Source: a virus
Lineage: Duplodnaviria > Caudoviricetes
Virus record (IMG/VR): IMGVR_UViG_3300029305_002995
Location: 32,001 to 96,000 of that record
Direction: 5' to 3' (one strand)
Length of the DNA stretch: 64,000 bases
Under the pieces are notes generated by a model. That model made no database searches. It was given only the letters and a program-made list of their open reading frames with translations, and had not been told where the DNA came from. Shown piece after piece: positions 15,723 to 50,544 of the stretch. Numbering within the stretch: position 1 is the first letter of the stretch; each line of letters starts with the position of its first letter. Made by a program: the position numbers and the translations under genes.

Positions 15723-16744
15723 CACGATACTTTACATATCGCAGACTATATCTTAACCATATCTTTTCAGACTTAGGTTCTCAGCACTTCCACATAATGA
15801 ATGTCACATTATATGTACTCTACTTGGTTACTCATATAACACCATTTAAGGTTTTATATTATCCTTTCGATAGTCGTTTGATTTTCGTAAAATAAAAATT
15901 CAATCATTTTATATATTTTTTAATGCTATAATGTTTTTTATACAAAGAATTATTTCTAATTGCTCTATTCAATTGACACCGTACAGTTTCTACGTTATCT
16001 GTATCAGCTACACCAATATCAATTAAATATTGACAACATGGTACAATATAATCAAAACTTTTAACCAACTCTCCATCGTAAAATAAATCAACTGGTGTAC
16101 TACGACCATTTTGTGTTGCAGGTCTACCTTGTTTTATTTTAGACAGCAATTTATCATTTTGGTATTTCTTTGACAATTTATCATTTCCATAATTAGGATT
16201 TTTCTCGCCATGATAATCTGGTCTATTACAATTACTATATCTAACATTATCAGCATGAGTCATCCATTCTAAATTATCTGCTTTAGGATTTGCTCTATTG
16301 TAATCTTTGTGATTTACTTCTGGTAAATTATTTGGATTCGGTACAAAAGCAATGGCAACTAATATATGTACTGCTACGCTACGATAACCGATATTAGGCA
16401 ATCGCAAAGTACACACAATATATCCATCTGCATTATATCTATGTACACACTCTTTTCCATTACAAATAATCTTTCCAAAATTAGATACAGTTAAGTTTAA
16501 TCCTTTATAGCAAATATTTTTATATTGTTCTTGCAATTATAACACCACCTATTTTTTTTATAAAATGATGGATTATTTTTATTTTACGCTTAACACAGGA
16601 TTGCCATAATTAGTTTCCCTGTTAGCACATTACCAAATCGTCATTTCCTACGATTCCAAAAATGTGTAATGTACACCCTATATTTATAGGTTCACTGAGT
16701 TTTATATCTCTATGTTTCCATAGAGTTTGACATTTTTACTGGTC
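15723..16744 (-). mobile_element. Group I intron 1 of RNAP, carrying an HNH homing endonuclease
   Basis: P1 TTTGAT/GTCAAA with U.G at the splice site. P3 CTCAGT/GCTGAG, P7 GACTA/TAGTC, AAGATATAGTC element, terminal G at 15723. Confidence 0.9.
15904..16536 (-). CDS. Intron-encoded HNH homing endonuclease (I-HmuI-like)
   Basis: VHILVAIAFVPNP..VNHKD..N..NLEW...N motif. Confidence 0.9.
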   Translation of the reverse strand: MQEQYKNICYKGLNLTVSNFGKIICNGKECVHRYNADGYIVCTLRLPNIGYRSVAVHILVAIAFVPNPNNLPEVNHKDYNRANPKADNLEWMTHADNVRYSNCNRPDYHGEKNPNYGNDKLSKKYQNDKLLSKIKQGRPATQNGRSTPVDLFYDGELVKSFDYIVPCCQYLIDIGVADTDNVETVRCQLNRAIRNNSLYKKHYSIKKYIK

Positions 16745-18574
16745 ATCAAATTGGAGAACTTTGGAAATTAAATCCTTACAGCTTGTATATAAAGCGTCAG
16801 TACAAAACCATCTTCTAATACTTTGCTGTAATTCTTCATTTTTGTAATAAGCAAGATTTTTTCTAATAGGATGTTCCCTATATAAATGCGGACTTCGCAA
16901 ACAATCTAATTTTTCATTTCTTCTAAACAACCAACAAAACACTTCGCCATCATTCAATAATCCATCTGGATTTTCTATACCCTTAAACCAATACTCACAC
17001 GCCGCATAAAAGTCTGGTAGAATAAAAGTATATTTACCATTGATTTTCAACTTACCTGCTTTAAATCGTTTAATCATACTATCTTTTAATTCTCTAAGAT
17101 AGGATTTTACATATTCATCATTTAACAAATTAGGATATAGTTCAATGGATTTCTGAAATGGTGTTTTATCTAAATTATATGGGGTAACTCCAAATGCTGC
17201 TTTAATTGTATCTACAGAAGAAGTTAAATTTTTTAACGTACAAATAGAATCGTTAGCAATCTTTAAGATTTCTTCATCAGATATATCAGTCAAGCTCTGG
17301 AGCATCTGATAATTAATTGTTGCATTTTTAATTCTATCTTCTTCTGGATTAGTAAAACCTGCTGTACAACCATATCGTTTATATAATTCTTTATAGTTAT
17401 CCCAAGAATCGTAATATTTCCAGAGTTTAAATTGACTTTTCGTAAAGATAACTTCAATATCTTCTTCTATTACATTATGTTCTTGACCATAAATATCTTT
17501 AATTACTGGCGAACAATTATTTTCAATAATGAACTCTCTGAAATTAAACACTCCAAGTAAGCCTTTAACCCAAGGTAAACGAACCATACGATTTTTACCC
17601 ATCTTAGGCAACATCATACCTGCACCATCTGTATGTGTAATTACAACATTATTAGATACTCTGTTAATTGAATAATCCACATCATCTACTAAATCGAAAG
17701 TACCAAACACTTCGGTTTCAAAATCATCAATCACTATTGTTTTATCGATATTAAATTCTTCCCATACGTCAGTAGCGGAATTTGCCAAAGCAAGATAAGC
17801 TAAATGCTTATTTGGATTATTTCCACCTCTACGATTAATTTCATCTACAGTCAAACCACACATAATTGTTTTTTCATGCTGTTTCCAAATAGATTCTTTT
17901 ATAAAAACAACTTTCTTGGTTCTAATTTGTCCAGCAGATGAAGTAAAATAGATATATTTTTCGCCTTCAAATTCAAAGCCATGATATATCAAATCTTTAA
18001 TAATATCGAAATAATACACTTGAATTACCATGAAATCTTTACATAATTCATCTTGTTTTGCTTGAATAGTTCTGGTAAACGAAGATTCAAAAACAGAAAT
18101 AATATCATCATTTGAAATTTCATTTTCTCTAACTTTACGAATATGATGTTTTCCTTTGGATTTAATATTAGCTTCAACCTTGACAGATAACAGTTTTAGT
18201 AGAGCTTCTTCTACGTTGTGAATTGCATTAGTTTTTACTGACATTAAATCTCTGAGCTTTTTATATTTCTTTGCCCAGAACACAACATCTTCATTTCCAC
18301 CCCATAAAGCATAGTCAAATTTATCTTTAACAATATCGCTAAAGTCATTTTCATCTAAACCATATAGATTTAACTTTTTCTCAATTTCTTTATATCCAAC
18401 TATGATACGCTTAACTTCACCATTAGATTTTGTAATATAGCCACCTTTTTTAATTTGATTCTTTTCTTCTCGTAAAGTGTGAATCTTTTTATGTAGCCTT
18501 GCTTCTTTGTTGGTGTAAAAATAGCCTGTATCTATAGAATATATTTGTAATTGGCGGTCTAACAACGCTATCAC
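16745..18574 (-). CDS. yonO: YonO-like single-subunit DNA-dependent RNA polymerase, exon 1 (spliced product ~963 aa)
   Basis: SSAGQIR, HTDGAG, RLPWVKG, RSPH motifs; QFD joins exon 2 to give QFDVDGD. Confidence 0.88.
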
Positions 18575-27631: not shown

Positions 27632-27820
27632 AAAAATTAGGGAGTCTTTCGACTCCCTTTTTTTATTTACAATTTTACAGATTATTTGTATTTTTGAAAA
27701 CAGAAACTTTTTGCTTTTATTTTAATTAATATCAAAATAATAGTATTTTTGAAAATAGACATAATTTGTAAATTTCCCTCACCTGCTTGACAACGTGACT
27801 TTTAGTTGATATAATTAAAA

Positions 27821-27950
27821 TACAAAGACAGCATTTAATTCCTTTTGATTTGTGCTAATGTTGTTTGTTGTTGTTATTTTCTTCAAATTAAAAGCTATTT
27901 CTTTTCCTGTTGTCTTTGTATTTGGCGGTGCTTACGGCATCGCCTTTTTT
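27821..27950 (+). ncRNA. Candidate trans-acting antisense sRNA occupying its own cassette
   Basis: TTGACA-17-TATAAT promoter (27787-27815), no ORF. Stem 27821-27833/27908-27920 closes a U-rich loop complementary to early-gene leaders. GC-rich terminator at 27924-27950. Confidence 0.75.
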
Positions 27951-36631: not shown

Positions 36632-37414
36632 ATGAGTAATGCTGTGATGCCTATTGCTAATTCTAATAATATTGTGCCTTTAATGGTAGTCTGCGAAGAA
36701 GGAACAGGCAAGCGGAAAAAGAATGGCGAATTGAAAAAAACAAAAAGCAATAAAGTTGCAGGAAAAGATGCAGAAGTGTATGCTTTTCGTAGTGATAAAG
36801 AAATTAATGCTATGTTAGATGTATTGAATCAGCACATTTATACTGCACCTAATCCAGAGAAACGTAAGATTGCTTGTAGGAATAAACTGCTGTTTAAGAT
36901 TGGTATTAATATCGGTTTAAGAGCAAGCGACCTTAGAACATTAAAGTTTAGTTTTTTCTTTGACCAGAATCCAGATGGAACTTTAGAATTTAAGGAATAT
37001 TACAAATTGCTACCTAAAAAAACACAGGCTTATAAAAAGTACGTTACTGTATATTTTAACTCTGCTGTAAAGCAAGCTGTATTGGAATATCTTAATGAAT
37101 ATCCAATGGATAGTTTAGACGATTATTTGTTCTTCTCCCGTGAAGGTGGAGCAATTAAAGTTGAAACGATGTGGACTATCATTAAGTCAACTGCTAAAGA
37201 AGCAGGAATTAGGCAGAATATCGGCTCTCATTCATTAAGAAAATCTTTTGGTTATCACGCTTTTCATTCGGCAGAAGATAAAAACAAAGCTTTAGTAATG
37301 TTACAGCAAATCTTTAACCATAGTAACGCTTTGGTTACTATGCGATATATCGGAATTTTAGGTGATGAAATGGCTGATATGTTTAATAGTATTGACTTAG
37401 GTTTTGAAGAATAG
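36632..37414 (+). CDS. Tyrosine recombinase (mainly the catalytic domain)
   Basis: GLRASDL, HSLRK, FNHS, TMRYIG. Confidence 0.88.
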   Translation: MSNAVMPIANSNNIVPLMVVCEEGTGKRKKNGELKKTKSNKVAGKDAEVYAFRSDKEINAMLDVLNQHIYTAPNPEKRKIACRNKLLFKIGINIGLRASDLRTLKFSFFFDQNPDGTLEFKEYYKLLPKKTQAYKKYVTVYFNSAVKQAVLEYLNEYPMDSLDDYLFFSREGGAIKVETMWTIIKSTAKEAGIRQNIGSHSLRKSFGYHAFHSAEDKNKALVMLQQIFNHSNALVTMRYIGILGDEMADMFNSIDLGFEE

Positions 37415-37613
37415 AGGTGTTGCAATGTTTGATTTGTGTGGCGTTTTTACCTTGTTGTTGGGTTTATATAGCTTTGTGGACGAATTGTTTACCGTTCCTA
37501 TATCTAAATCAAAACACTTTGATACAGATGGATACATTAAAGATATTAAGAATGGTATGACTTCTAAAGAACAATTCCATAAAAGGAGGTCTGGAAGATA
37601 TTGGGTGGAATAA
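37404..37613 (+). CDS. Small membrane protein
   Basis: Hydrophobic N-terminus; GAGGTG RBS. Confidence 0.5.
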   Translation: MKNRGVAMFDLCGVFTLLLGLYSFVDELFTVPISKSKHFDTDGYIKDIKNGMTSKEQFHKRRSGRYWVE

Positions 37614-37765
37614 TTGAACACACTAAGAAAATAAATATTTCAATAAATTTCAGAAAACCCCTTGACATAGCAAAATCATTATGCTATACTATAATCACAG
37701 GAAGAAAGTAAGTATTCCGATAAACAATAACAAACACAAAAGTAAATCAAAAGGAGAAATGAATT

Positions 37766-39136
37766 ATGTTGGAAAAAGCTACTATCCCTATGAACGCAAG
37801 TCAGATTAAAAAAATGGTACTCGCAGATAAACTTGATTTTAACCATGTTGTACAGCGTGGTTTGACTTGGGAAACTGCAAGAAAGTCCAAGTTTATCCAT
37901 AGTATGATTGAGGGTTATCCATTCCCTTCTGTTTATGCAAAACGTGAAGTGTCCGAAGAAAACAAATCTAATAAACGATATATTGTTCTGGATGGCAAAC
38001 AGCGTCTGACTACTGTTAAACAGTATTTGAATGATGAATTTAAACTGAGTGTCGTTGAACCTATCACTTATTTTGACGAGACTGTAAACGAAGAAGTTAC
38101 AGTTGATATTTCTGGAAAACTGTTTAGCGAACTTCCAGAATCCTTGCAGAATGTTTTGAACACTGTTTCCTTTACTGTTGTTTATTATGACAATTTGACC
38201 AAAGAACAGGAACGTGAAATGTTTAAGAGACTTAATGCAGGTAAACCGCTGTCCTCTAAATCCAGACTGCTTGCTTCTTGTCGTGATATTGAACGTATGC
38301 TTGACATTGGTTCTCACCCACTGTTTGGCGAACTGCTGACTGACAAAGCAAGAGAGCATAAGAGTCAGGTTACTATCGTTATGAAAGCATGGTTGATGCT
38401 GTATGACGATATTGGACACACTTCTTTTGCAGGTAAAGACTTTAGCAATGTAATGGAAACTACTGAAATTGCTGACAAACAGAAAATTGAACTGCACAAT
38501 GTATTTAGTATGATTATGGATATGCACAATATTCTGATTGGACAGAAAGAAAAGAAAGTTGCTAAAAAACTTTACACTGAAACTCACATGATTTCCCTTG
38601 TACCATTTATTAAAAAAGCTATGGATGATGGTATTGGAGCAGAAATGCTTGTAGACTGGCTCATTAGCTTCTTTGGTGTATCTGGTCGTGTAGCAAGTGT
38701 AGATAGAGACTATAATATGTCTTGTTCTTCTGGTTCTGCCAAAAACTCTAATATCGTAACCAGACATGATGCACTTGAAAAAAGCTATGAAGAATTTTTC
38801 GCTGATTTTAATGCAGAAGTTGAAGGAACTGACGATGTAGAAGATATTGACGAAGTTGAAGAAGTAATGGAAGAAACTATTGAGAATGATACTGTTGAAG
38901 AAGAATCCTCTTTTGAGGATTCTTCCGACAACACCGAAGAATTTATTGAAGATTCTGTTGAAGAAGTGGTTAATGTTAATGAAAACTCAGAAGTAGTAAA
39001 TGATATGACTCTTGAAGAAATTCTCGGAGATGTAACCATTGAAGGTGTAACTGATACAGTCGAAGAACATGATATTGCCGAAGAATCAGTTGTAGAAATT
39101 AAAAGCGAAGTAAACAACGAAGAAACCGAAATGTAA
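37766..39136 (+). CDS. DUF262 (ParB/Srx-fold) protein with a long acidic tail
   Basis: QRGLTW, FIHSMIEGYPFP, VLDGKQRL, F.RLN.G motifs. Confidence 0.8.
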   Translation: MLEKATIPMNASQIKKMVLADKLDFNHVVQRGLTWETARKSKFIHSMIEGYPFPSVYAKREVSEENKSNKRYIVLDGKQRLTTVKQYLNDEFKLSVVEPITYFDETVNEEVTVDISGKLFSELPESLQNVLNTVSFTVVYYDNLTKEQEREMFKRLNAGKPLSSKSRLLASCRDIERMLDIGSHPLFGELLTDKAREHKSQVTIVMKAWLMLYDDIGHTSFAGKDFSNVMETTEIADKQKIELHNVFSMIMDMHNILIGQKEKKVAKKLYTETHMISLVPFIKKAMDDGIGAEMLVDWLISFFGVSGRVASVDRDYNMSCSSGSAKNSNIVTRHDALEKSYEEFFADFNAEVEGTDDVEDIDEVEEVMEETIENDTVEEESSFEDSSDNTEEFIEDSVEEVVNVNENSEVVNDMTLEEILGDVTIEGVTDTVEEHDIAEESVVEIKSEVNNEETEM

Positions 39137-39310
39137 TATATAATCATGTCCAATAAAATGGGTGGGAACTTTCCCACCCACAAACTTATTCAGAAAACAA
39201 ATATATTGATAACCCTTCTTCTTATTTTATATTTCTTCTTGCCATGACAGTAAGGTTATGCTATAATGTACATAAACAAAACCATAAACTGTTTTGAAAG
39301 GAGAAACACA

Positions 39311-40246
39311 ATGAAAAGCTATAAGGAATTTGCCGATTCTATTGCGGTAGAAGGTACTGCAAGAGCTATTCGTGCTTTTGGTAAACGCATTGGTGATTTT
39401 AATTTTGAAACTTGTACGCAAAAAGACCTTGAAGAACTAATTATCAATGCCAGACCACAGAACGAAAGAGAACTTGACCGCTTTGTATATTCGGTTGAAT
39501 TGTATGCCAGATTTAACGAGGATGCTGAATTATTTAACAAAACGAAAACTATTGATAGAACTGCTTTGTGGCAAAGAGCCAAACACAATATTCCTGCTAA
39601 ATTCTTATCTCACAAAGACTATTTGCAGTTATTAGAAGATATGGAACGTTTGGAAGAATACAACGTTGATTATAAGGTTCTAATGATGAAAAGTGTTTAT
39701 GAGGGTGTATATAATGATGATTTAAGCGTCATTAAGAATCTTAAAGCATCTGATATTAATGAAAATATCTTAACTCTTAGACCCGATAATGGAGAACCGT
39801 ATGAATTGTCAGTATCTTTAAAATTGGCTAATGAATTAAAAGAATTTAGTAAGGTTCAGATTTTTGAACGTAAAAATTCTCGTTGTGAATTTACTGTTCC
39901 TGCTACTGGTGTGTCACATGATGCTTGCTTTAAATTTGAATTAAGAAAAGACAAACCATTGGAAGAACTTTTTAGATTCTCTGTATATAGAGTATTGCGT
40001 GACGCTACCAAAAAGTATTGTGGTCGTAGTATTTTACCTTCGCAGATTTATATCAGCGGTATTGTATATCGTATTAAAATTAAACTGCAAGAAAAAGGAT
40101 TAACTATGGAAGATGCTTTTGGTGATATGAGAACACACAAAGCTGCTTCTGATGTTGTTAAGGCAGAATTGGCTCGTAGTCATTACGATGTAACTTTCCA
40201 CGCTTTCAAACATACTGTTAAAAGTCATTACAAAATCTTTGACTAA
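39311..40246 (+). CDS. mrpR: MrpR/YopR-like repressor (degenerate tyrosine-recombinase fold)
   Basis: VYEGV....SVIKNL and LPSQIYISGIVYR resemble SPbeta YopR as recalled. It follows a recombinase and a ParB-fold gene as in yopP-yopQ-yopR. Start MKSYK after an AAGGAG RBS. Confidence 0.65.
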   Translation: MKSYKEFADSIAVEGTARAIRAFGKRIGDFNFETCTQKDLEELIINARPQNERELDRFVYSVELYARFNEDAELFNKTKTIDRTALWQRAKHNIPAKFLSHKDYLQLLEDMERLEEYNVDYKVLMMKSVYEGVYNDDLSVIKNLKASDINENILTLRPDNGEPYELSVSLKLANELKEFSKVQIFERKNSRCEFTVPATGVSHDACFKFELRKDKPLEELFRFSVYRVLRDATKKYCGRSILPSQIYISGIVYRIKIKLQEKGLTMEDAFGDMRTHKAASDVVKAELARSHYDVTFHAFKHTVKSHYKIFD

Positions 40247-41320: not shown

Positions 41321-41608
41321 ATGGCAACAATAAATGATTTAATGCAAGTGTATTCTGTTTCTGTAGAAATTTTCGATGGTATTAATCGACAGTTTAATCA
41401 GATGCAAGCTCCAAGACTTGTAATTCAAAATGACTTTTTATCATTGGTACAGCAAGCAGCTAATACACTTTCGCCTATTCGTATTATAATGAGTCGGTCT
41501 GTTCCTATTTGGGATAATTTTGAAAATCGACAACGTACTATTGAAAATAAAATAGTCTTTAAGAATAATGCGTTTTTGTCGGCTTATGCTAATTATCCAG
41601 ATGAATAA
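41321..41608 (+). CDS. Hypothetical protein
   Basis: GGTG RBS. Confidence 0.6.
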   Translation: MATINDLMQVYSVSVEIFDGINRQFNQMQAPRLVIQNDFLSLVQQAANTLSPIRIIMSRSVPIWDNFENRQRTIENKIVFKNNAFLSAYANYPDE

Positions 41609-41657
41609 ACAAGAAAATAACTCCAAAAATTAATTTGAAAAATTTCAAAAAAAGGTG

Positions 41658-41686
41658 TTGACAACATCAAAACGATGTGATATACT
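41658..41686 (+). promoter_or_regulatory. SigA-type promoter of the tRNA/ncRNA operon
   Basis: TTGACA-17-TATACT. Confidence 0.75.
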
Positions 41687-41901
41687 AAGGACAGTAAATC
41701 GAACAGATTTACTTCACAACTTTATTTCAGATAATAAGGTTATGAGTTCGGCATTATTAACTCCTTTCGTATATTGTGTCAGTTTAATGGCAGTTGTAAA
41801 ACAGGTAGTAAGTTTTAAATAATGGCAGGTTTAAAACACGATAAGTTAAACTGATACAATAAACAATTATTAAGAAAATAAAGTTGTAATCTGTCTAATA
41901 T

Positions 41902-41987
41902 GGTGGAGTGGTGGAATAGGCAGACACCACGGACTTAAAATCCGTTGCTTCAAAGGCGTGAGGGTTCAAATCCCTTCTCCACCACCA
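41902..41987 (+). tRNA. tRNA-Leu(TAA)
   Basis: ACGGA-CTTAAAA-TCCGT arm; ACCA end. Confidence 0.92.
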
Positions 41988-42107
41988 TAAGCGATAATCA
42001 AAAATGGCATGGTGAATAGTTTCGCTTTGTTGTTCAAACAATTATCTTATAGAAAAATAAGACTGCGAATAAAAATGTGGCTCAACAGGTTATCGCTTAT
42101 ATTATAT

Positions 42108-42195
42108 GGGGAAATGGCTGAGTGGTTGAAAGCAGTTGCCTACTAAGCAACCAAGTGTAACAGCTTCGGGGGTTCGAATCCCTCTTTCCCCGCCA
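42108..42195 (+). tRNA. tRNA-Ser(ACT), unusual A34
   Basis: GTTGC-CTACTAA-GCAAC arm; long variable arm; GCCA end. Confidence 0.85.
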
Positions 42196-42344
42196 ACTAT
42201 CAGATTAAATAATGTGGTCTGATGCGTGAAATGGTTTTTTGTTTGTTGTGCGACTTTGAAATCTCCTTTTCAAAAAATAATCTTCATAGGTGTTACCTGT
42301 TGATATAATGGGTTGGATGAATAAAGACGCCCTCCTTTTTAAAT

Positions 42345-42421
42345 GTGCCTTTAGCTCAGTTGGTCAGAGCGGCAAACTCATAATTTGCGGGTCTACAGTT
42401 CGAACCTGTAAAGGCGCACCA
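42345..42421 (+). tRNA. tRNA-Met/Ile2(CAT)
   Basis: GCAAA-CTCATAA-TTTGC arm; ACCA end. Confidence 0.9.
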
Positions 42422-42548
42422 TTGGAATATTAAATTCCAACTTTTTTCAAAGTGTTTTTTCTTCTAAAAAACATTTTAGTCTCCTAATCTTCTTTATTTT
42501 TTTATCCTATCTATTTTTTGCTTGTATTTAATAGTGCAAGCAAAATAT

Positions 42549-42622
42549 GTTCCGTTAGTTTAATGGTAAAAACAACTGCTTATCAATCAGTAGTGATGTT
42601 GGTTCGAGTCCAATGCGGAATA
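42549..42622 (+). tRNA. tRNA with ATC anticodon (Asp-like, A34; possibly degenerate)
   Basis: Cloverleaf with loop TTATCAA; one anticodon-stem mismatch; no encoded CCA. Confidence 0.6.
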
Positions 42623-42629
42623 ATATCTT

Positions 42630-43015
42630 AAAGATAAGATGATACACAAAATCGTTTAGACTAACGAGGTTAGCTTGGTTAATAAGATTCTGACGAGAAT
42701 TTGTTCCCAAGAAGTTTATCTTTAACTGCAAGATAAACAAGTCTGGAAGATTCATTAAAAGGACGTTTGGTTTATGCGTGTAGGTGTACAACTACAATAA
42801 ACTATTTTCGGGCTTACGGAAAATTAAAATGACAGAGCCATTAGCATACAATGATTGCGAAAAGAACGCTGGTTTAGCAAGAAAACCACAGTATGTATCT
42901 TGCATTGATGATAATTTTGGGTGTGACACGATAAGTGTTTAGCAAGATTCAGAGCCTTGCTGATAATGGGAGTGTCAAAGTATCTGGACAGTGGAAGTAA
43001 AGATGCTAAGAGACA
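42630..43015 (+). ncRNA. Candidate large structured ncRNA in the tRNA cluster
   Basis: No credible ORF; many nested helices (GTTTATCT/AGATAAAC, TGGTTT/AAACCA, AGCAAG/CTTGCT, TGACAC/GTGTCA). Confidence 0.45.
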
Positions 43016-43022
43016 ATAATAT

Positions 43023-43102
43023 GAGTAGATATGTAAGTGGTTGACATACAATCCTTTTATTTCGTTAAGCGGATTGCGTAGGTTCGAATCCTACTCTACT
43101 CG
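43023..43102 (+). ncRNA. tRNA-like element with a 16-nt anticodon loop
   Basis: Perfect acceptor GAGTAGA/TCTACTC and T-arm GTAGG-TTCGAAT-CCTAC; AATCC/GGATT closes an oversized loop. Confidence 0.6.
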
Positions 43103-43313
43103 GTCGAATATAGATAGTCAGAGTGTACATAATGGCTATTTTGCAAGCGGAAAATTTTCAAAAAGACAATAAAATAGTTGTTTTATGTGATTTTTTGCAG
43201 TTTACGATTTTGCCCAAATTCACTTAGCAGTATCTATTATTGCTATTTCAAAATTAGTAATCTAAAAACGTTTGCAAACAGTGTCCCTGTTACTGCTACT
43301 ACAGGGTGTACAA

Positions 43314-43397
43314 GGGGATATGTCGGAATTGGCAGACGAGGTAGACTCAAAATCTATTGCTTTATGCGTGTGGGTTCAAGTCCCACTATCCCCACCA
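43314..43397 (+). tRNA. tRNA-Leu(CAA)
   Basis: GTAGA-CTCAAAA-TCTAT arm; ACCA end. Confidence 0.92.
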
Positions 43398-43561
43398 ATA
43401 CGATAGGCTTACCAATTAGTCACCTCTCTTCTTTTTATGTTTTGTTGTGTTTTTTATGGGTTTTGGCGTTATTGGTTTTTTGTTTTTCATTTTTCAGATT
43501 AATCTCCTTTTAAATATAATTTCTGCTTGTTTGATATATTTAATTGATAAGTCTATCGTAT
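43398..43561 (+). ncRNA. Stem-closed inter-tRNA RNA with anti-SD/anti-leader loop
   Basis: 21-bp stem ATACGATAGGCTTACCAATTA/TAATTGATAAGTCTATCGTAT; loop contains CACCTC and ATCTCCTTTT. Confidence 0.6.
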
Positions 43562-43570
43562 TTATTATAT

Positions 43571-43647
43571 GCGGTATTAATGTTCAATGGTTAGCATATC
43601 AGCCTTCCAAGCTGAGAGTGAGGGTTCGAGTCCCTTATACCGCTCCA
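43571..43647 (+). tRNA. tRNA-Gly(TCC)
   Basis: TCAGC-CTTCCAA-GCTGA arm; TCCA end. Confidence 0.9.
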
Positions 43648-43932
43648 GATTCAATTTAGTTGAATTAACACGATGGTTATATCTTTAATCATGCGTAGTG
43701 TACTCGCAAGGGTACTGAGCCTGTCGAATCAGCAGGAGAAAAATTGGTTCATTATGCGCCCATTTAGTAAAACAACTGTGTGTTGTGTGATTGTTTTACT
43801 AAAATTAGCAAAAAGGTTAAGGGTTTTCCTTTTTGCAATCTTCGTTATAATAATTACTGTTCCTTAAAAGTAATAACGTTATTATAAATGGATTAAGAAA
43901 ACCCACTCCGTTTAAGGTGGTGAAATAAAAAA

Positions 43933-44123
43933 ATGGAACATAAGCATTTAGCTAAAGTAAGACCAATCGGAAAATTTTTGGTGTATGCGGTGGTTTAGGT
44001 GAATATTTTAATATCGACCCAACATGGATTAGATTAGGTTGGTGTGCTAGTGTGGTTCTGTGTGGTGTTGGTATTGTTGCTTATCTTGTAGCTGCATTGG
44101 TAATGCCAGAATGTGATAAATAA
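43933..44123 (+). pseudogene. pspC: PspC-domain membrane protein with a 1-nt frameshift
   Basis: MEHKHLAK, then in the -1 frame KTNRKIFGVCGGLGEYFNIDPTWIRL...YLVAALVMP. Confidence 0.7.
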
Positions 44124-44147
44124 ATAGTGCAAGGTGGTAAGGTTATA

Positions 44148-44267
44148 ATGTTTAGTAAAGAACTTGTTGTAATGATGTTGGAAAGTCGTGCAGAAAAACT
44201 TTCTAAGAATCCAGACAATAATAAATTGCTTGCAAAAGTAAAACGTAGAATTAAAAAATTAAAATAA
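44148..44267 (+). CDS. 39-aa basic peptide (not in ORF track)
   Basis: MFSKELVVMMLESRAEKLSKNPDNNKLLAKVKRRIKKLK; ends immediately before a tRNA. Confidence 0.5.
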   Translation: MFSKELVVMMLESRAEKLSKNPDNNKLLAKVKRRIKKLK

Positions 44268-44351
44268 GTCGATATGCTGGAATTGGCAGACAAAACAGAT
44301 TTAGAATCTGTTGCTTTATGCGTAAGGGTTCGAGTCCCTTTATCGACACCA
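44268..44351 (+). tRNA. tRNA-Leu(TAG)
   Basis: ACAGA-TTTAGAA-TCTGT arm; ACCA end. Confidence 0.9.
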
Positions 44352-44545
44352 TAATGTTGTCTTAATATATGCAAATAACATTAATATTAAAAAACAAAAG
44401 TCGTATCTTGTTCGGAAATAAAAATGTCAAATGCACACTTTTCTTTGTTCTATTAAGGCAATGTTAGGGTGGTTGTGGGGACTCCATCAGCACATAAATA
44501 AGTCCCTAAACAGAACATTTTATTATTTTAAGGAGGTAGATTCCG

Positions 44546-45682
44546 ATGGTGAAGAAAATTATTTCTTCTATGGTAGCAATTGCAATGATGCTTTCTATGA
44601 GTATTTCTGCTTTTGCTACCGATACTGTTGTATTCGGTGGCAATTCTAAAGTTGTAAACGATACTCCAGTATCTACAATTACTTTTGAAGATGTATACAT
44701 CTTCGATAAAGAAATGAACGTAAAAACCAATGCCATTGTAAAAGGTGAAGCATACGAAAATCTTGTTGCAGGAGATATTCTGATGTTCCCTATGAATGGC
44801 GTACAGGCTGTCAATGGAGAATACAAAGTAGATAAGGATTGGAAAATTAAAGTTACCAATTCTCGCTTTGTAGAAAATGCAGAGTTCTTCTATGACGAAA
44901 AAAATGTTGTTCCAGATGCTACTGGTGACGTTTCTGGTTCTTATGTAAAAATTACCTTGTCTGATAATTTTAACTCTTATGAAGCTGACTATGCTACTTT
45001 TGAGTTCTTTGTTTATGACAAAAATGAACCAGAACAGAAAACCGCTATTCAGTCTGTAAAATATAAATTTGCAGATTACGCAGAAGTAGAACTGGACGAG
45101 TTCGATGTAAATACTATTGTTTCTTTGGAAAAAAATACTGTTTACACTCTTGCTGATGGCGTAAAATCCGCTAATGTTATGTTTGATATGGATGGTTTGA
45201 ATATTGTTGTTCGTATGTATGAAGATGAAGAATATCTTGTAAAAGAACATTCTGTTGAATACAATAAAGAACTGTCTATCAAATATGACACTGATATTGA
45301 AGTGATTACCATTGATAGCAACATTGATATTTATGATATTCTATTTGAATCTAAAAAAGACGACAAAGCTATTTATGTAGTAGATGGTGATGAACTTGTT
45401 CTTGTAGAAACAGAATACGTTGAAAAATACGAATTGAATAAAGGCGAATATACCTTGATTAAAGGTTATGTTGTAGAGAATGTAACTGATGCAGAATGGG
45501 TGGTTCTGGATGCAGATGTAGAAATTGCAGTTAAAGAACCAGAGGTAGAAAAACCAGTTGAAACTCCTTCTGTTGATGTGAAACCAAATCCAGAAACTGG
45601 TGCTGGCAATGTAGTTAGTGTAGCTACTGCTATGGCTGTTATGTCTGTAATTGGTTTAGGCGTACTATCCTCTAAAAGATAG
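44546..45682 (+). CDS. Secreted, cell-wall-anchored protein (NPETG sorting signal)
   Basis: Signal peptide ending SAFA; C-terminal NPETG, hydrophobic helix and KR. Confidence 0.8.
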   Translation: MVKKIISSMVAIAMMLSMSISAFATDTVVFGGNSKVVNDTPVSTITFEDVYIFDKEMNVKTNAIVKGEAYENLVAGDILMFPMNGVQAVNGEYKVDKDWKIKVTNSRFVENAEFFYDEKNVVPDATGDVSGSYVKITLSDNFNSYEADYATFEFFVYDKNEPEQKTAIQSVKYKFADYAEVELDEFDVNTIVSLEKNTVYTLADGVKSANVMFDMDGLNIVVRMYEDEEYLVKEHSVEYNKELSIKYDTDIEVITIDSNIDIYDILFESKKDDKAIYVVDGDELVLVETEYVEKYELNKGEYTLIKGYVVENVTDAEWVVLDADVEIAVKEPEVEKPVETPSVDVKPNPETGAGNVVSVATAMAVMSVIGLGVLSSKR

Positions 45683-45742
45683 TTCAATAAAAGTCAGCTT
45701 AGATTATTTGTGTGGAGCATTTATCTAAGCTGACGCAAATAT

Positions 45743-45816
45743 TGAGCATTAGTGTAATGGTAGCACAACACACTTTGACTGTGTTCGAGGTGGTTCAAGT
45801 CCACCATGCTCAGCCA
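45743..45816 (+). tRNA. tRNA-Gln(TTG)
   Basis: ACACA-CTTTGAC-TGTGT arm; GCCA end. Confidence 0.9.
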
Positions 45817-46070
45817 ATAACATCTATCTTTCAGTAGCGACACCTCTTTCAGAAACAGGCTGAAAGCTGTACCTATTCGGGAAGGTGGCAGGAAGAAACC
45901 AGCTTTTTAATTTGATAGCAGTCTCCTATTTAATTGCTTTTGTGTTTTCAGTTGTGGTTATGTGGATATTGAGGTAGTGACACATAACCACAACGCACAC
46001 ACGATAATAGGACTTTAAATAAATAGGTTAGCGTGGTTGTTAAACCGCGCATTTCCCATATATAAATTTT

Positions 46071-46727
46071 TTGGAAGGAATGGAACAAATGAATGTTACA
46101 GAAAACACGATGTTTGAACAACATTTAAATTCTGAATTTTATCCTAATACATTGATTAAGATGGTTAGTGTAGACGACACTGAAACACTATTGTCATACA
46201 GCACTTTAATTAATCATTTGTTTGCAAGTAAAGAAAAATCATTTGAAAATATTAAACGTCTTGAAATCTATACTAAAGGCGATAATTTAGAAAAACTACT
46301 GTGTGGAATTGCTCCTTTATGGAAAGAGCATGAAAGCAAAGAACTATTTGAAAAATATTATCGTTTAAGTGAAATGATGCGATGCTTGTACTGTAATCAA
46401 TTTGAAGAAGATACTGGTGAACCTGCTTATATTTTCTTGGATATTGAAAATGAACCAGAAAAGTTAATTGCAACATGGCAAGGTAAACTTGTAGGACATG
46501 ATGAAGAAAATAATGAATTATATGAAGATTCATTTAGCTATCGTCCTGCTACTATTGAAGAACGTGGTATTTTGGATTTAATTCAAGATATTGTTAAAGT
46601 AGAATTGCCAGAAAAATTTATTGTTGTACACGAAGATAATATTACTTTAGGTGGTTGTAAAAATCTATATAGTCATATTGCTGCTATTGGTTTCCCGCCT
46701 CATATTGTAAATATTAATGCAGAGTAA
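46071..46727 (+). CDS. Hypothetical protein
   Basis: 218-aa ORF. Confidence 0.65.
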   Translation: MEGMEQMNVTENTMFEQHLNSEFYPNTLIKMVSVDDTETLLSYSTLINHLFASKEKSFENIKRLEIYTKGDNLEKLLCGIAPLWKEHESKELFEKYYRLSEMMRCLYCNQFEEDTGEPAYIFLDIENEPEKLIATWQGKLVGHDEENNELYEDSFSYRPATIEERGILDLIQDIVKVELPEKFIVVHEDNITLGGCKNLYSHIAAIGFPPHIVNINAE

Positions 46728-50403: not shown

Positions 50404-50544
50404 TAATCTACAAAAGTTCTTTGCAACTATTTTTAATTTAAGTGTAATTAAACAGTCTTTTTTTGTTATGTTGGTTGTTTTGTTAATACTGGTACTTTTG
50501 TGGTTAAAGCATTGTTGGAGCAAATATTTTGAAGGTGATAACTA

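Follow-up and report, generated by a model that had tools for sequence, protein, structure and literature searches.

Anti-Shine–Dalgarno spacers in the tRNA operon of an SPbeta-like phage are probably cut out as translation-blocking small RNAs

What are the long, structured spacers of a phage transfer RNA (tRNA) operon for? The question arises in a 64,000-nt window (bases 32001–96000 of the 111-kb phage record IMGVR_UViG_3300029305_002995; 32% GC), where a tRNA operon that begins near position 41658 of the window carries spacers complementary to Shine–Dalgarno (SD) sequences. All positions given here are those of the window, and all features lie on the plus strand unless stated otherwise. An original prediction, made from the letters alone, held that these spacers form a tRNA-punctuated array of small RNAs (sRNAs). 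The array was partly supported in our analysis, by its promoter, the lack of a predicted terminator, its structured spacers, its mostly exposed cores, and a matching design at the syntenic locus of relatives; the named guide targets were not. The feature is real and non-random, C4- or RsaE-like in its working and a member of neither family. Judging from sequence, the spacers are probably cut out as translation-blocking small RNAs. They resemble repressors with a wide range of targets more than guides dedicated to single genes, and by analogy the best reading of the design is that of tRNA-processed, RsaE/C4-like broad anti-SD sRNAs.

Anti-SD cores are strongly enriched in the spacers. We counted CUCCU and CACCUC, motif sets that were picked after the data had been seen, in an enrichment check suggested with the original prediction. 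Six cores occur in the spacers, against 1.23 expected with the 5-mer set (dinucleotide shuffles, p = 0.0015) and 0.58 with the 6-mer set (0 of 2000 dinucleotide shuffles). Counting the trailer that follows the last tRNA, there are 8 cores in 2,096 nt, compared with 2 in 12,814 nt of other non-coding DNA and 23 in 91,654 nt of coding DNA; the remaining genome predicts 0.33–0.53. The late tRNA cluster has none. At five of the six sites the core has an unpaired probability of 0.57–0.93, so that the unpaired, enriched C-rich anti-SD motif of the RsaE/RoxS type is present here. Two of the window's cores carry CAU at anti-start spacing, and of 18 cores across the clade, 6 are preceded by a CAU at a distance of 4–9 nt (post hoc p = 4e-4).

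The locus is laid out as a non-coding polycistron with a single strong promoter. A near-consensus sigma-A promoter (TTGACA-17-TATACT with an extended −10, 11/12 match) lies at 41658–41686; it is the best site in 41–46.3 kb and one of 20 such sites genome-wide, mostly in the early arm. No terminator was predicted across the tRNA cluster, and transcription from this promoter would read through tRNAs and structured spacers alike. The cluster holds seven tRNAs, a tRNA-like element at 43023, a frameshifted pspC, and an open reading frame (ORF) of 39 amino acids, and it resumes with tRNA-Gln beyond a gene for 378 amino acids.

Clamp significance was assessed against 100 shuffles, and folding is expressed as z. 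The 5′ leader cassette (41716–41887; fold z −4.6) is closed by a fifth clamp (41716/41887, p < 0.01) that the original prediction lacked. Its anti-SD core, CUCCUUUC at 41761 with CAU 6 nt upstream, is unpaired in the centroid, and an internal 19-bp stem joins 41769–41787 to 41846–41864. tRNA-Leu(UAA) (41902–41987) is followed, right after CCA, by a stem-closed spacer without anti-SD (41988–42099; 12-bp clamp, p < 0.01; z −5.0). After tRNA-Ser (42108–42195) comes a weakly structured spacer (42196–42344; z −1.3) with a U/G-rich tract and anti-SD cores at 42263 and 42332, the first of which overlaps the DNA motif TTTTCAAAAA. The three-hairpin spacer (42422–42547; z −7.2) between tRNA-Met(CAU) (42345–42421) and tRNA-Asp (42548–42623) is, in its modeled fold, the best sRNA-like module. 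Its 38-nt single-stranded pyrimidine tract includes CUCCUA at 42481, with CAU 6 nt upstream and an unpaired probability of 0.93.

Further along, a 400-nt structured spacer (42624–43022; z −2.5) has neither anti-SD nor an Rfam family. It has no homolog in the loci that we fetched, and relatives hold large RNAs in the operon at this place. The tRNA-like element that follows (43023–43102; Rfam tRNA, 40.5 bits) has, in its predicted fold, an enlarged anticodon loop and is a probable pseudo-tRNA. Next come a multi-hairpin spacer with a 10-bp clamp and no anti-SD (43140–43278; z −3.9 for 43139–43278) and tRNA-Leu(CAA) (43314–43397). The cassette right after the CCA of the latter (43398–43561; z −3.5) has a 22-nt clamp (91%) that beats 100 of 100 shuffles; its loop contains CACCUC (43421), a U/G-rich tract, and CUCCUUU (43504). 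Beyond tRNA-Gly(UCC) (43571–43647), a PspC-domain gene whose reading frame is disrupted by a shift within an A/T run (43933–44123; PF04024, E 8e-22), and the 39-amino-acid ORF, which has no family (44148–44267), tRNA-Leu(UAG) (44268–44351) leads into a stem-closed spacer that starts right after CCA and has no anti-SD (44352–44467; z −3.0). The trailer (45817–46070) after tRNA-Gln(UUG) (45743–45816), the downstream continuation of the cluster, has anti-SD cores at 45841 and 45923, both of them mostly paired. Folding reached z values of −3 to −7 in 6 of the 7 short modules tested.

Four clamped spacers abutting tRNAs had been proposed, and this held in large part. The clamps 41988/42099 and 43398/43561 beat 100 shuffles and 44352–44467 folds well, but the 43140/43278 clamp alone reached only p = 0.11. 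Similarly, the clamps open at CCA+1 at 41988, 43398, and 44352, which is the tRNA–spacer adjacency of the 3′ETS-leuZ type, but the clamp at 43140 begins 37 nt past the tRNA-like gene. The proposal that clamped spacers carry anti-SD sequences was borne out at 43398 and failed for those placed at 41987, 43139, and 44353. Clamps end ahead of an A/U-rich linker, and most tRNAs are preceded by such a linker ending in AT. There are no CRISPR-like direct repeats; the multi-copy repeat families are tRNA parts only, and each clamp is unique. An Rfam scan of 41600–46100 gave no credible tmRNA, C4 (E ≤ 10), ROOL, GOLLD, RsaE, or other family.

Which messages might these cores face? The original prediction had each spacer guide the shutoff of a named early gene (ardC, identified by its Pfam ArdcN and MPTase-PolyVal domains, 29773, 22912, 26669, 35506, 28380, or 51318), as part of an early-to-middle switch or lysogeny. 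All eight of its antisense matches exist, five of them exact (12/12, 12/12, 10/10, 14/14, and 14/14) and those with ardC, 26637, and 35471 gapped, as had been described. Because any SD complement will match some gene among at least 100 by chance, we used a null in which the anti-SD core was held and the flanks were shuffled, with other phages' start regions as a further control. For six sites, per-site p values were 0.09–0.99 by loose duplex energy, 0.08–0.85 by local alignment, and 0.03–0.74 by tight duplex (Fisher p = 0.12), and foreign start regions scored equal or better at most of them. That the matches single out specific phage genes was not confirmed. Nor is the ardC pairing fully exposed, since the 3′ half of the match (41770–41777) is buried in the internal 19-bp stem of the leader cassette, and gene 51318 is not part of the early cassettes.

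Other observations lean toward the named guides. Most per-site p values are below 0.5, and composition-preserving shuffles are blind to selection for a U/G-rich tail, a caveat in favor of the original prediction. The A/C content of early leaders reaches 0.93, against 0.50 elsewhere, which lets U/G-rich loops pair with them. When 10,907 genome windows were scanned against the early leaders, those at 43411, 45921, and 42471 ranked third to fifth, which puts three of the top five in this cluster and speaks for translation-blocking spacers in general. The windows at 43411 and 42471 pair equally well with non-early genes, which makes them generic mirror images of start regions. With pairing at chance level and no own-genome preference, we consider gene-by-gene guidance unlikely; the main targets may equally well be mRNAs of the host or of a competitor as those of the phage itself.

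The target tests could detect a self-targeting RNA, because a stand-alone sRNA elsewhere in the genome passed two of three. This stem-closed RNA at 27787–27950 (fold z −7.4), a predicted anti-early sRNA and as such a point for the named guides, has its own promoter, a 14-bp clamp, and a terminator hairpin. It is antisense to the common A/C-rich early leaders (21869, 28380, 31793, and 37766). With its core fixed it reached z −3.7 by loose duplex and p = 0.008–0.04 by local alignment, with p = 0.22 by tight duplex, and it ranked first of the 10,907 windows. By these sequence statistics it is the best self-targeting candidate in the genome. The trailer segment 45922–45960 matches the leaders of 37766 and 28380 (block-shuffle p = 0.005; core-fixed p 0.1–0.24). 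Pairing thus supports putative repression of the phage's own early cassettes for the 27787 sRNA, weakly for the 45922 trailer, and for only those two. The second-ranked window genome-wide, 50404–50544, is an intergenic U/G-rich tract with no anti-SD and a fold z of 0.4.

In relatives that share about 50 genes with this phage (capsid 63%, MrpR 36%), mrpR is likewise followed by a small gene, then promoters, a non-coding block, and tRNAs. In one clade, ROOL (288–308 bits, six loci) lies directly upstream of an anti-SD cassette. Downstream of ROOL is a structured RNA of ~460 nt with no Rfam family (L099:9248–9703 and 14 other loci, alignment A2), in which 27 of 113 pairs show compensatory change (0/500 shuffles); it occurs without ROOL in L114/L116. 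Inside a conserved stem, CUCCUUUC is invariant in 14 of 14 loop-bearing copies and the adjacent 5′ bases vary; a divergent member of this clade has a bare hairpin in place of the loop. A second, 21-bp stem has loops that are wholly different between near-identical phages and mostly coreless. In another clade, the G003 and G006 types have the same long stem with unrelated loops, each with CAU and an anti-SD. In L119, a phage of more distant relationship, the tRNA spacers contain 4 anti-SD clusters against 0.8 expected (p = 0.008), and one loop has the motif three times.

A comparison with relatives had been suggested, to see whether loops follow their own early leaders. The relatives' loops had no significant own-genome target (Fisher p = 0.11), which also speaks against named guides; in the early-gene rank test, the promoter pattern recovered only 1–3 early genes in these phages. 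Two candidates were rejected: a seemingly long duplex of the G007 loop with its own 210-amino-acid early gene (p = 0.43–0.58), and a G006 loop match with p = 0.033 that fell to p = 0.18 in the tight duplex test.

The same comparison bears on whether the spacers are processing scaffolds or fossils, that is, inverted promoter-leader scraps whose stems aid tRNA folding or maturation, whose pieces are degraded, and whose motifs are inert. Three clamps lack anti-SD, stems in relatives also flank tRNAs as extended acceptor helices, and the operon gathers debris (the broken pspC here; in relatives, HNH genes and a piece of 23S). Two spacers, at 42267 and 43155, hold TTTTCAAAAA, a probable protein-binding site that is otherwise restricted to non-coding DNA of the early region (19.7–36 kb, with 29 of the genome's 33 copies). 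Capture of such scraps would not always yield an antisense orientation or an unpaired core, however, and the genome contains no long exact source for them (12–16 nt at the longest). In 14 relatives the core also stays unchanged where the loop bases vary, and we find the scaffold or fossil explanation rather doubtful.

Indels in relatives argue against a further explanation, one that had been named as a possible refutation of the array: that the SD-like motifs belong to tiny minus-strand genes. Four SD-plus-start pairs do exist on that strand, giving 4, 9, 14, and 24 codons. The minus strand has no good promoter, and the 24-amino-acid ORF has an SD spacing of 13 nt and no family. Since indels of 1 and 4 nt break the equivalent frame in the conserved loop and leave the core intact, peptides are disfavored, and we regard them as extremely improbable.

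The motifs might instead be decoys of the 16S rRNA 3′ tail, soaking up a nuclease that cuts the anti-SD or a protein that binds it, or sponging G-rich host RNAs in the manner of 3′ETS-leuZ. The cores CUCCUUUC or CACCUC resemble the Firmicute 16S tail, L119 triples the motif in one loop, and no specific target was found. There is also a known toxin that acts by removing the anti-SD from 16S rRNA (PMC12274833). The anti-AUG triplets at SD spacing and the U-rich anti-leader tails are foreign to the 16S tail, and we think decoys very unlikely.

Several points weigh against translation-blocking spacer RNAs. No own-genome target rose above chance for the six sites under any of the three scoring schemes, and 301 genomes of one candidate host family, that of the metagenome-assembled genome (MAG) G424, gave no target significance (3 hits vs 3 controls; a second reverse-complement pattern found 2 scattered matches with two mismatches, as had the first with its 3). 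Clamp and anti-SD coincide in just two modules, the leader and 43398–43561. Apart from identical strain copies, IMG/VR and cultured phages yielded no sequence related to the window's spacers, and the modules of relatives are syntenic analogs, not orthologs, of them. Few or no anti-SD spacers occur in L114/L116, L111, L141, C55, and L091, and a single divergent sequence accounts for much of the covariation in the two closing stems.

Weighing all of this, we lean, somewhat past even, toward the view that the spacers would be stable and use their core and U-rich tail to repress the translation of several mRNAs. RNase P and 3′ tRNA maturation are established to free inter-tRNA spacers, and the host's enzymes would release each spacer here. 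Clamps or terminal hairpins would stabilize the freed pieces, and the 12–22-bp clamps could also serve as RNase III sites. An exposed CUCCU or CACCUC core with its U-rich tail, sometimes with an anti-AUG, would then pair with the SD and its A-rich upstream flank and block 30S loading, as with RsaE/RoxS and P1 C4. Clamped spacers without an anti-SD may be scaffolds or another kind of RNA. More tentatively, the tRNA operon of SPbeta-like phages could be a polycistronic sRNA platform whose swappable loops, exchanged between close relatives on a constant stem, would be aimed at start regions of the host or of rival phages.

Known systems offer partial parallels. C4 RNA is processed by RNase P and covers a ribosome-binding site (PMC5320573, PMC12197685). 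The C4 of P1/P7 and the spacers would have in common a temperate-phage setting, cutting from a precursor by host RNase P (expected here from the flanking tRNAs), loops over the ribosome-binding site and upstream bases, a link to lysogeny and immunity, and variable loops on a fixed scaffold. C4, though, folds into a single tRNA-like structure of 77 nt and has a known target, ant, whereas here real tRNAs would separate several unrelated folds that have no Rfam C4 match; loops pairing with the ribosome-binding site of one phage antirepressor were not found, own-genome targets being at chance. RsaE/RoxS of Firmicutes likewise puts unpaired C-rich motifs on the SD sequences of many mRNAs (PMC6158497), with duplicated motifs and a Gram-positive setting in common; unlike the phage tRNA spacers, which lack an Rfam match, it is chromosomal, separately transcribed, and sequence-conserved.

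The E. coli 3′ETS-leuZ is a functional tRNA-precursor spacer (Lalaouna 2015, as cited in PMC8166272), and it too is located in a tRNA precursor. It is an external spacer, one only, and acts through Hfq as a sponge of sRNAs, in contrast to an array of internal spacers with anti-SD cores; according to the same review, no stable internal tRNA spacers have been reported. ROOL and GOLLD occur near phage tRNA islands (PMC12286853), and ROOL holds the syntenic position in six relatives, but the window has neither, and its 400-nt spacer matches no family. We found no description of an anti-SD spacer array in a phage tRNA operon in the open-access literature.

The finding bears on the reasons for which phages retain tRNA clusters that have long spacers and odd tRNAs, and on what the ROOL-type RNAs beside such clusters do. 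If the tRNAs also mark where translation-blocking RNAs are cut out, such clusters would serve regulation, there would be a reason for degenerate tRNAs to be retained, and phages would own an RNA-only route to gene silencing in Gram-positive hosts. If the swappable-guide platform is real, nature would have its own version of the engineered tRNA-guide arrays, expressed in relatives alongside the ROOL nanocage RNA. The idea is cheap to test because the modules are short, their ends are predicted, and there is a five-base core to mutate.

Upstream of the operon is an SPbeta-type lysogeny module of three genes (36632–40246): a tyrosine-recombinase-like (integrase-like) gene (36632–37414; Pfam Phage_integrase), a GmrSD_N gene (37766–39136; Pfam GmrSD_N), and a gene for an MrpR-like repressor of 311 amino acids (39311–40246). 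The repressor was assigned by MrpR_C_cat, precomputed on identical copies; a Pfam scan that we ran on the 311-amino-acid protein gave no match. SPbeta core genes include mrpR, yopQ, and yopP, and MrpR is the SPbeta master repressor (PMC10516654). This phage has a core module of mrpR, yopQ-like, and yopP-like genes together with a single-subunit RNA polymerase (a fragment with an RdRP domain at 16736–18565), as SPbeta-like phages do, and its capsid protein has a distant likeness to those of phiCD211 and SPbeta-like phages. The early arm (21.8–36 kb) consists of successive cassettes, all of which have their own sigma-A promoter and a leader rich in A and C; the repressor module is followed by three small genes and then the tRNA cluster.

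The motif TAA(G/A)GTTA recurs in promoter-near non-coding DNA (22763, 24230, 39251, 40752, 41735, 44138, 47987, 50149, 59728, and 61033), and one copy sits between −35 and −10 of the mrpR promoter. We consider it a candidate MrpR operator. The copy in the leader cassette, TAAGGTTAT at 41735–41743, occurs also in the mrpR promoter spacer; together with an early-type promoter, this putative operator would fit repressor control and lytic expression of the operon. In several relatives (L040:10050–10320, L119:3980–4190, and G424:C55), two or three tandem sigma-A promoters precede the operon, and some are followed by a boxA-like CTTGAGAA/CTTGACAA sequence that recalls an rRNA operon leader.

Two of the window's tRNAs have unusual A34 anticodons (tRNA-Ser-ACU and tRNA-Asp-AUC), and the anticodon loop of the first tRNA of the ROOL clade is aberrant, as is that of the pseudo-tRNA. 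The A34 tRNAs and the pseudo-tRNA may be kept as processing signals. The 378-amino-acid protein encoded inside the cluster (44546–45682) looks secreted and has an NPETG sorting-type motif; its homologs are 25–29% identical, at least one of them on a Clostridia-like chromosomal contig (L093). HNH/NUMOD-type ORFs lie between tRNAs in L099, L103, L120, and L139, at positions that vary among close relatives. One relative was found in a bacterial assembly (G424:C55), in a MAG that is Lachnospiraceae-like by reading of its genes. This related 160-kb phage contig ends within its own tRNA array beside an apparent 23S rRNA 3′ fragment (L162, L169), which could mean that the phage integrated at a tRNA next to an rRNA operon or that the contig was mis-joined.

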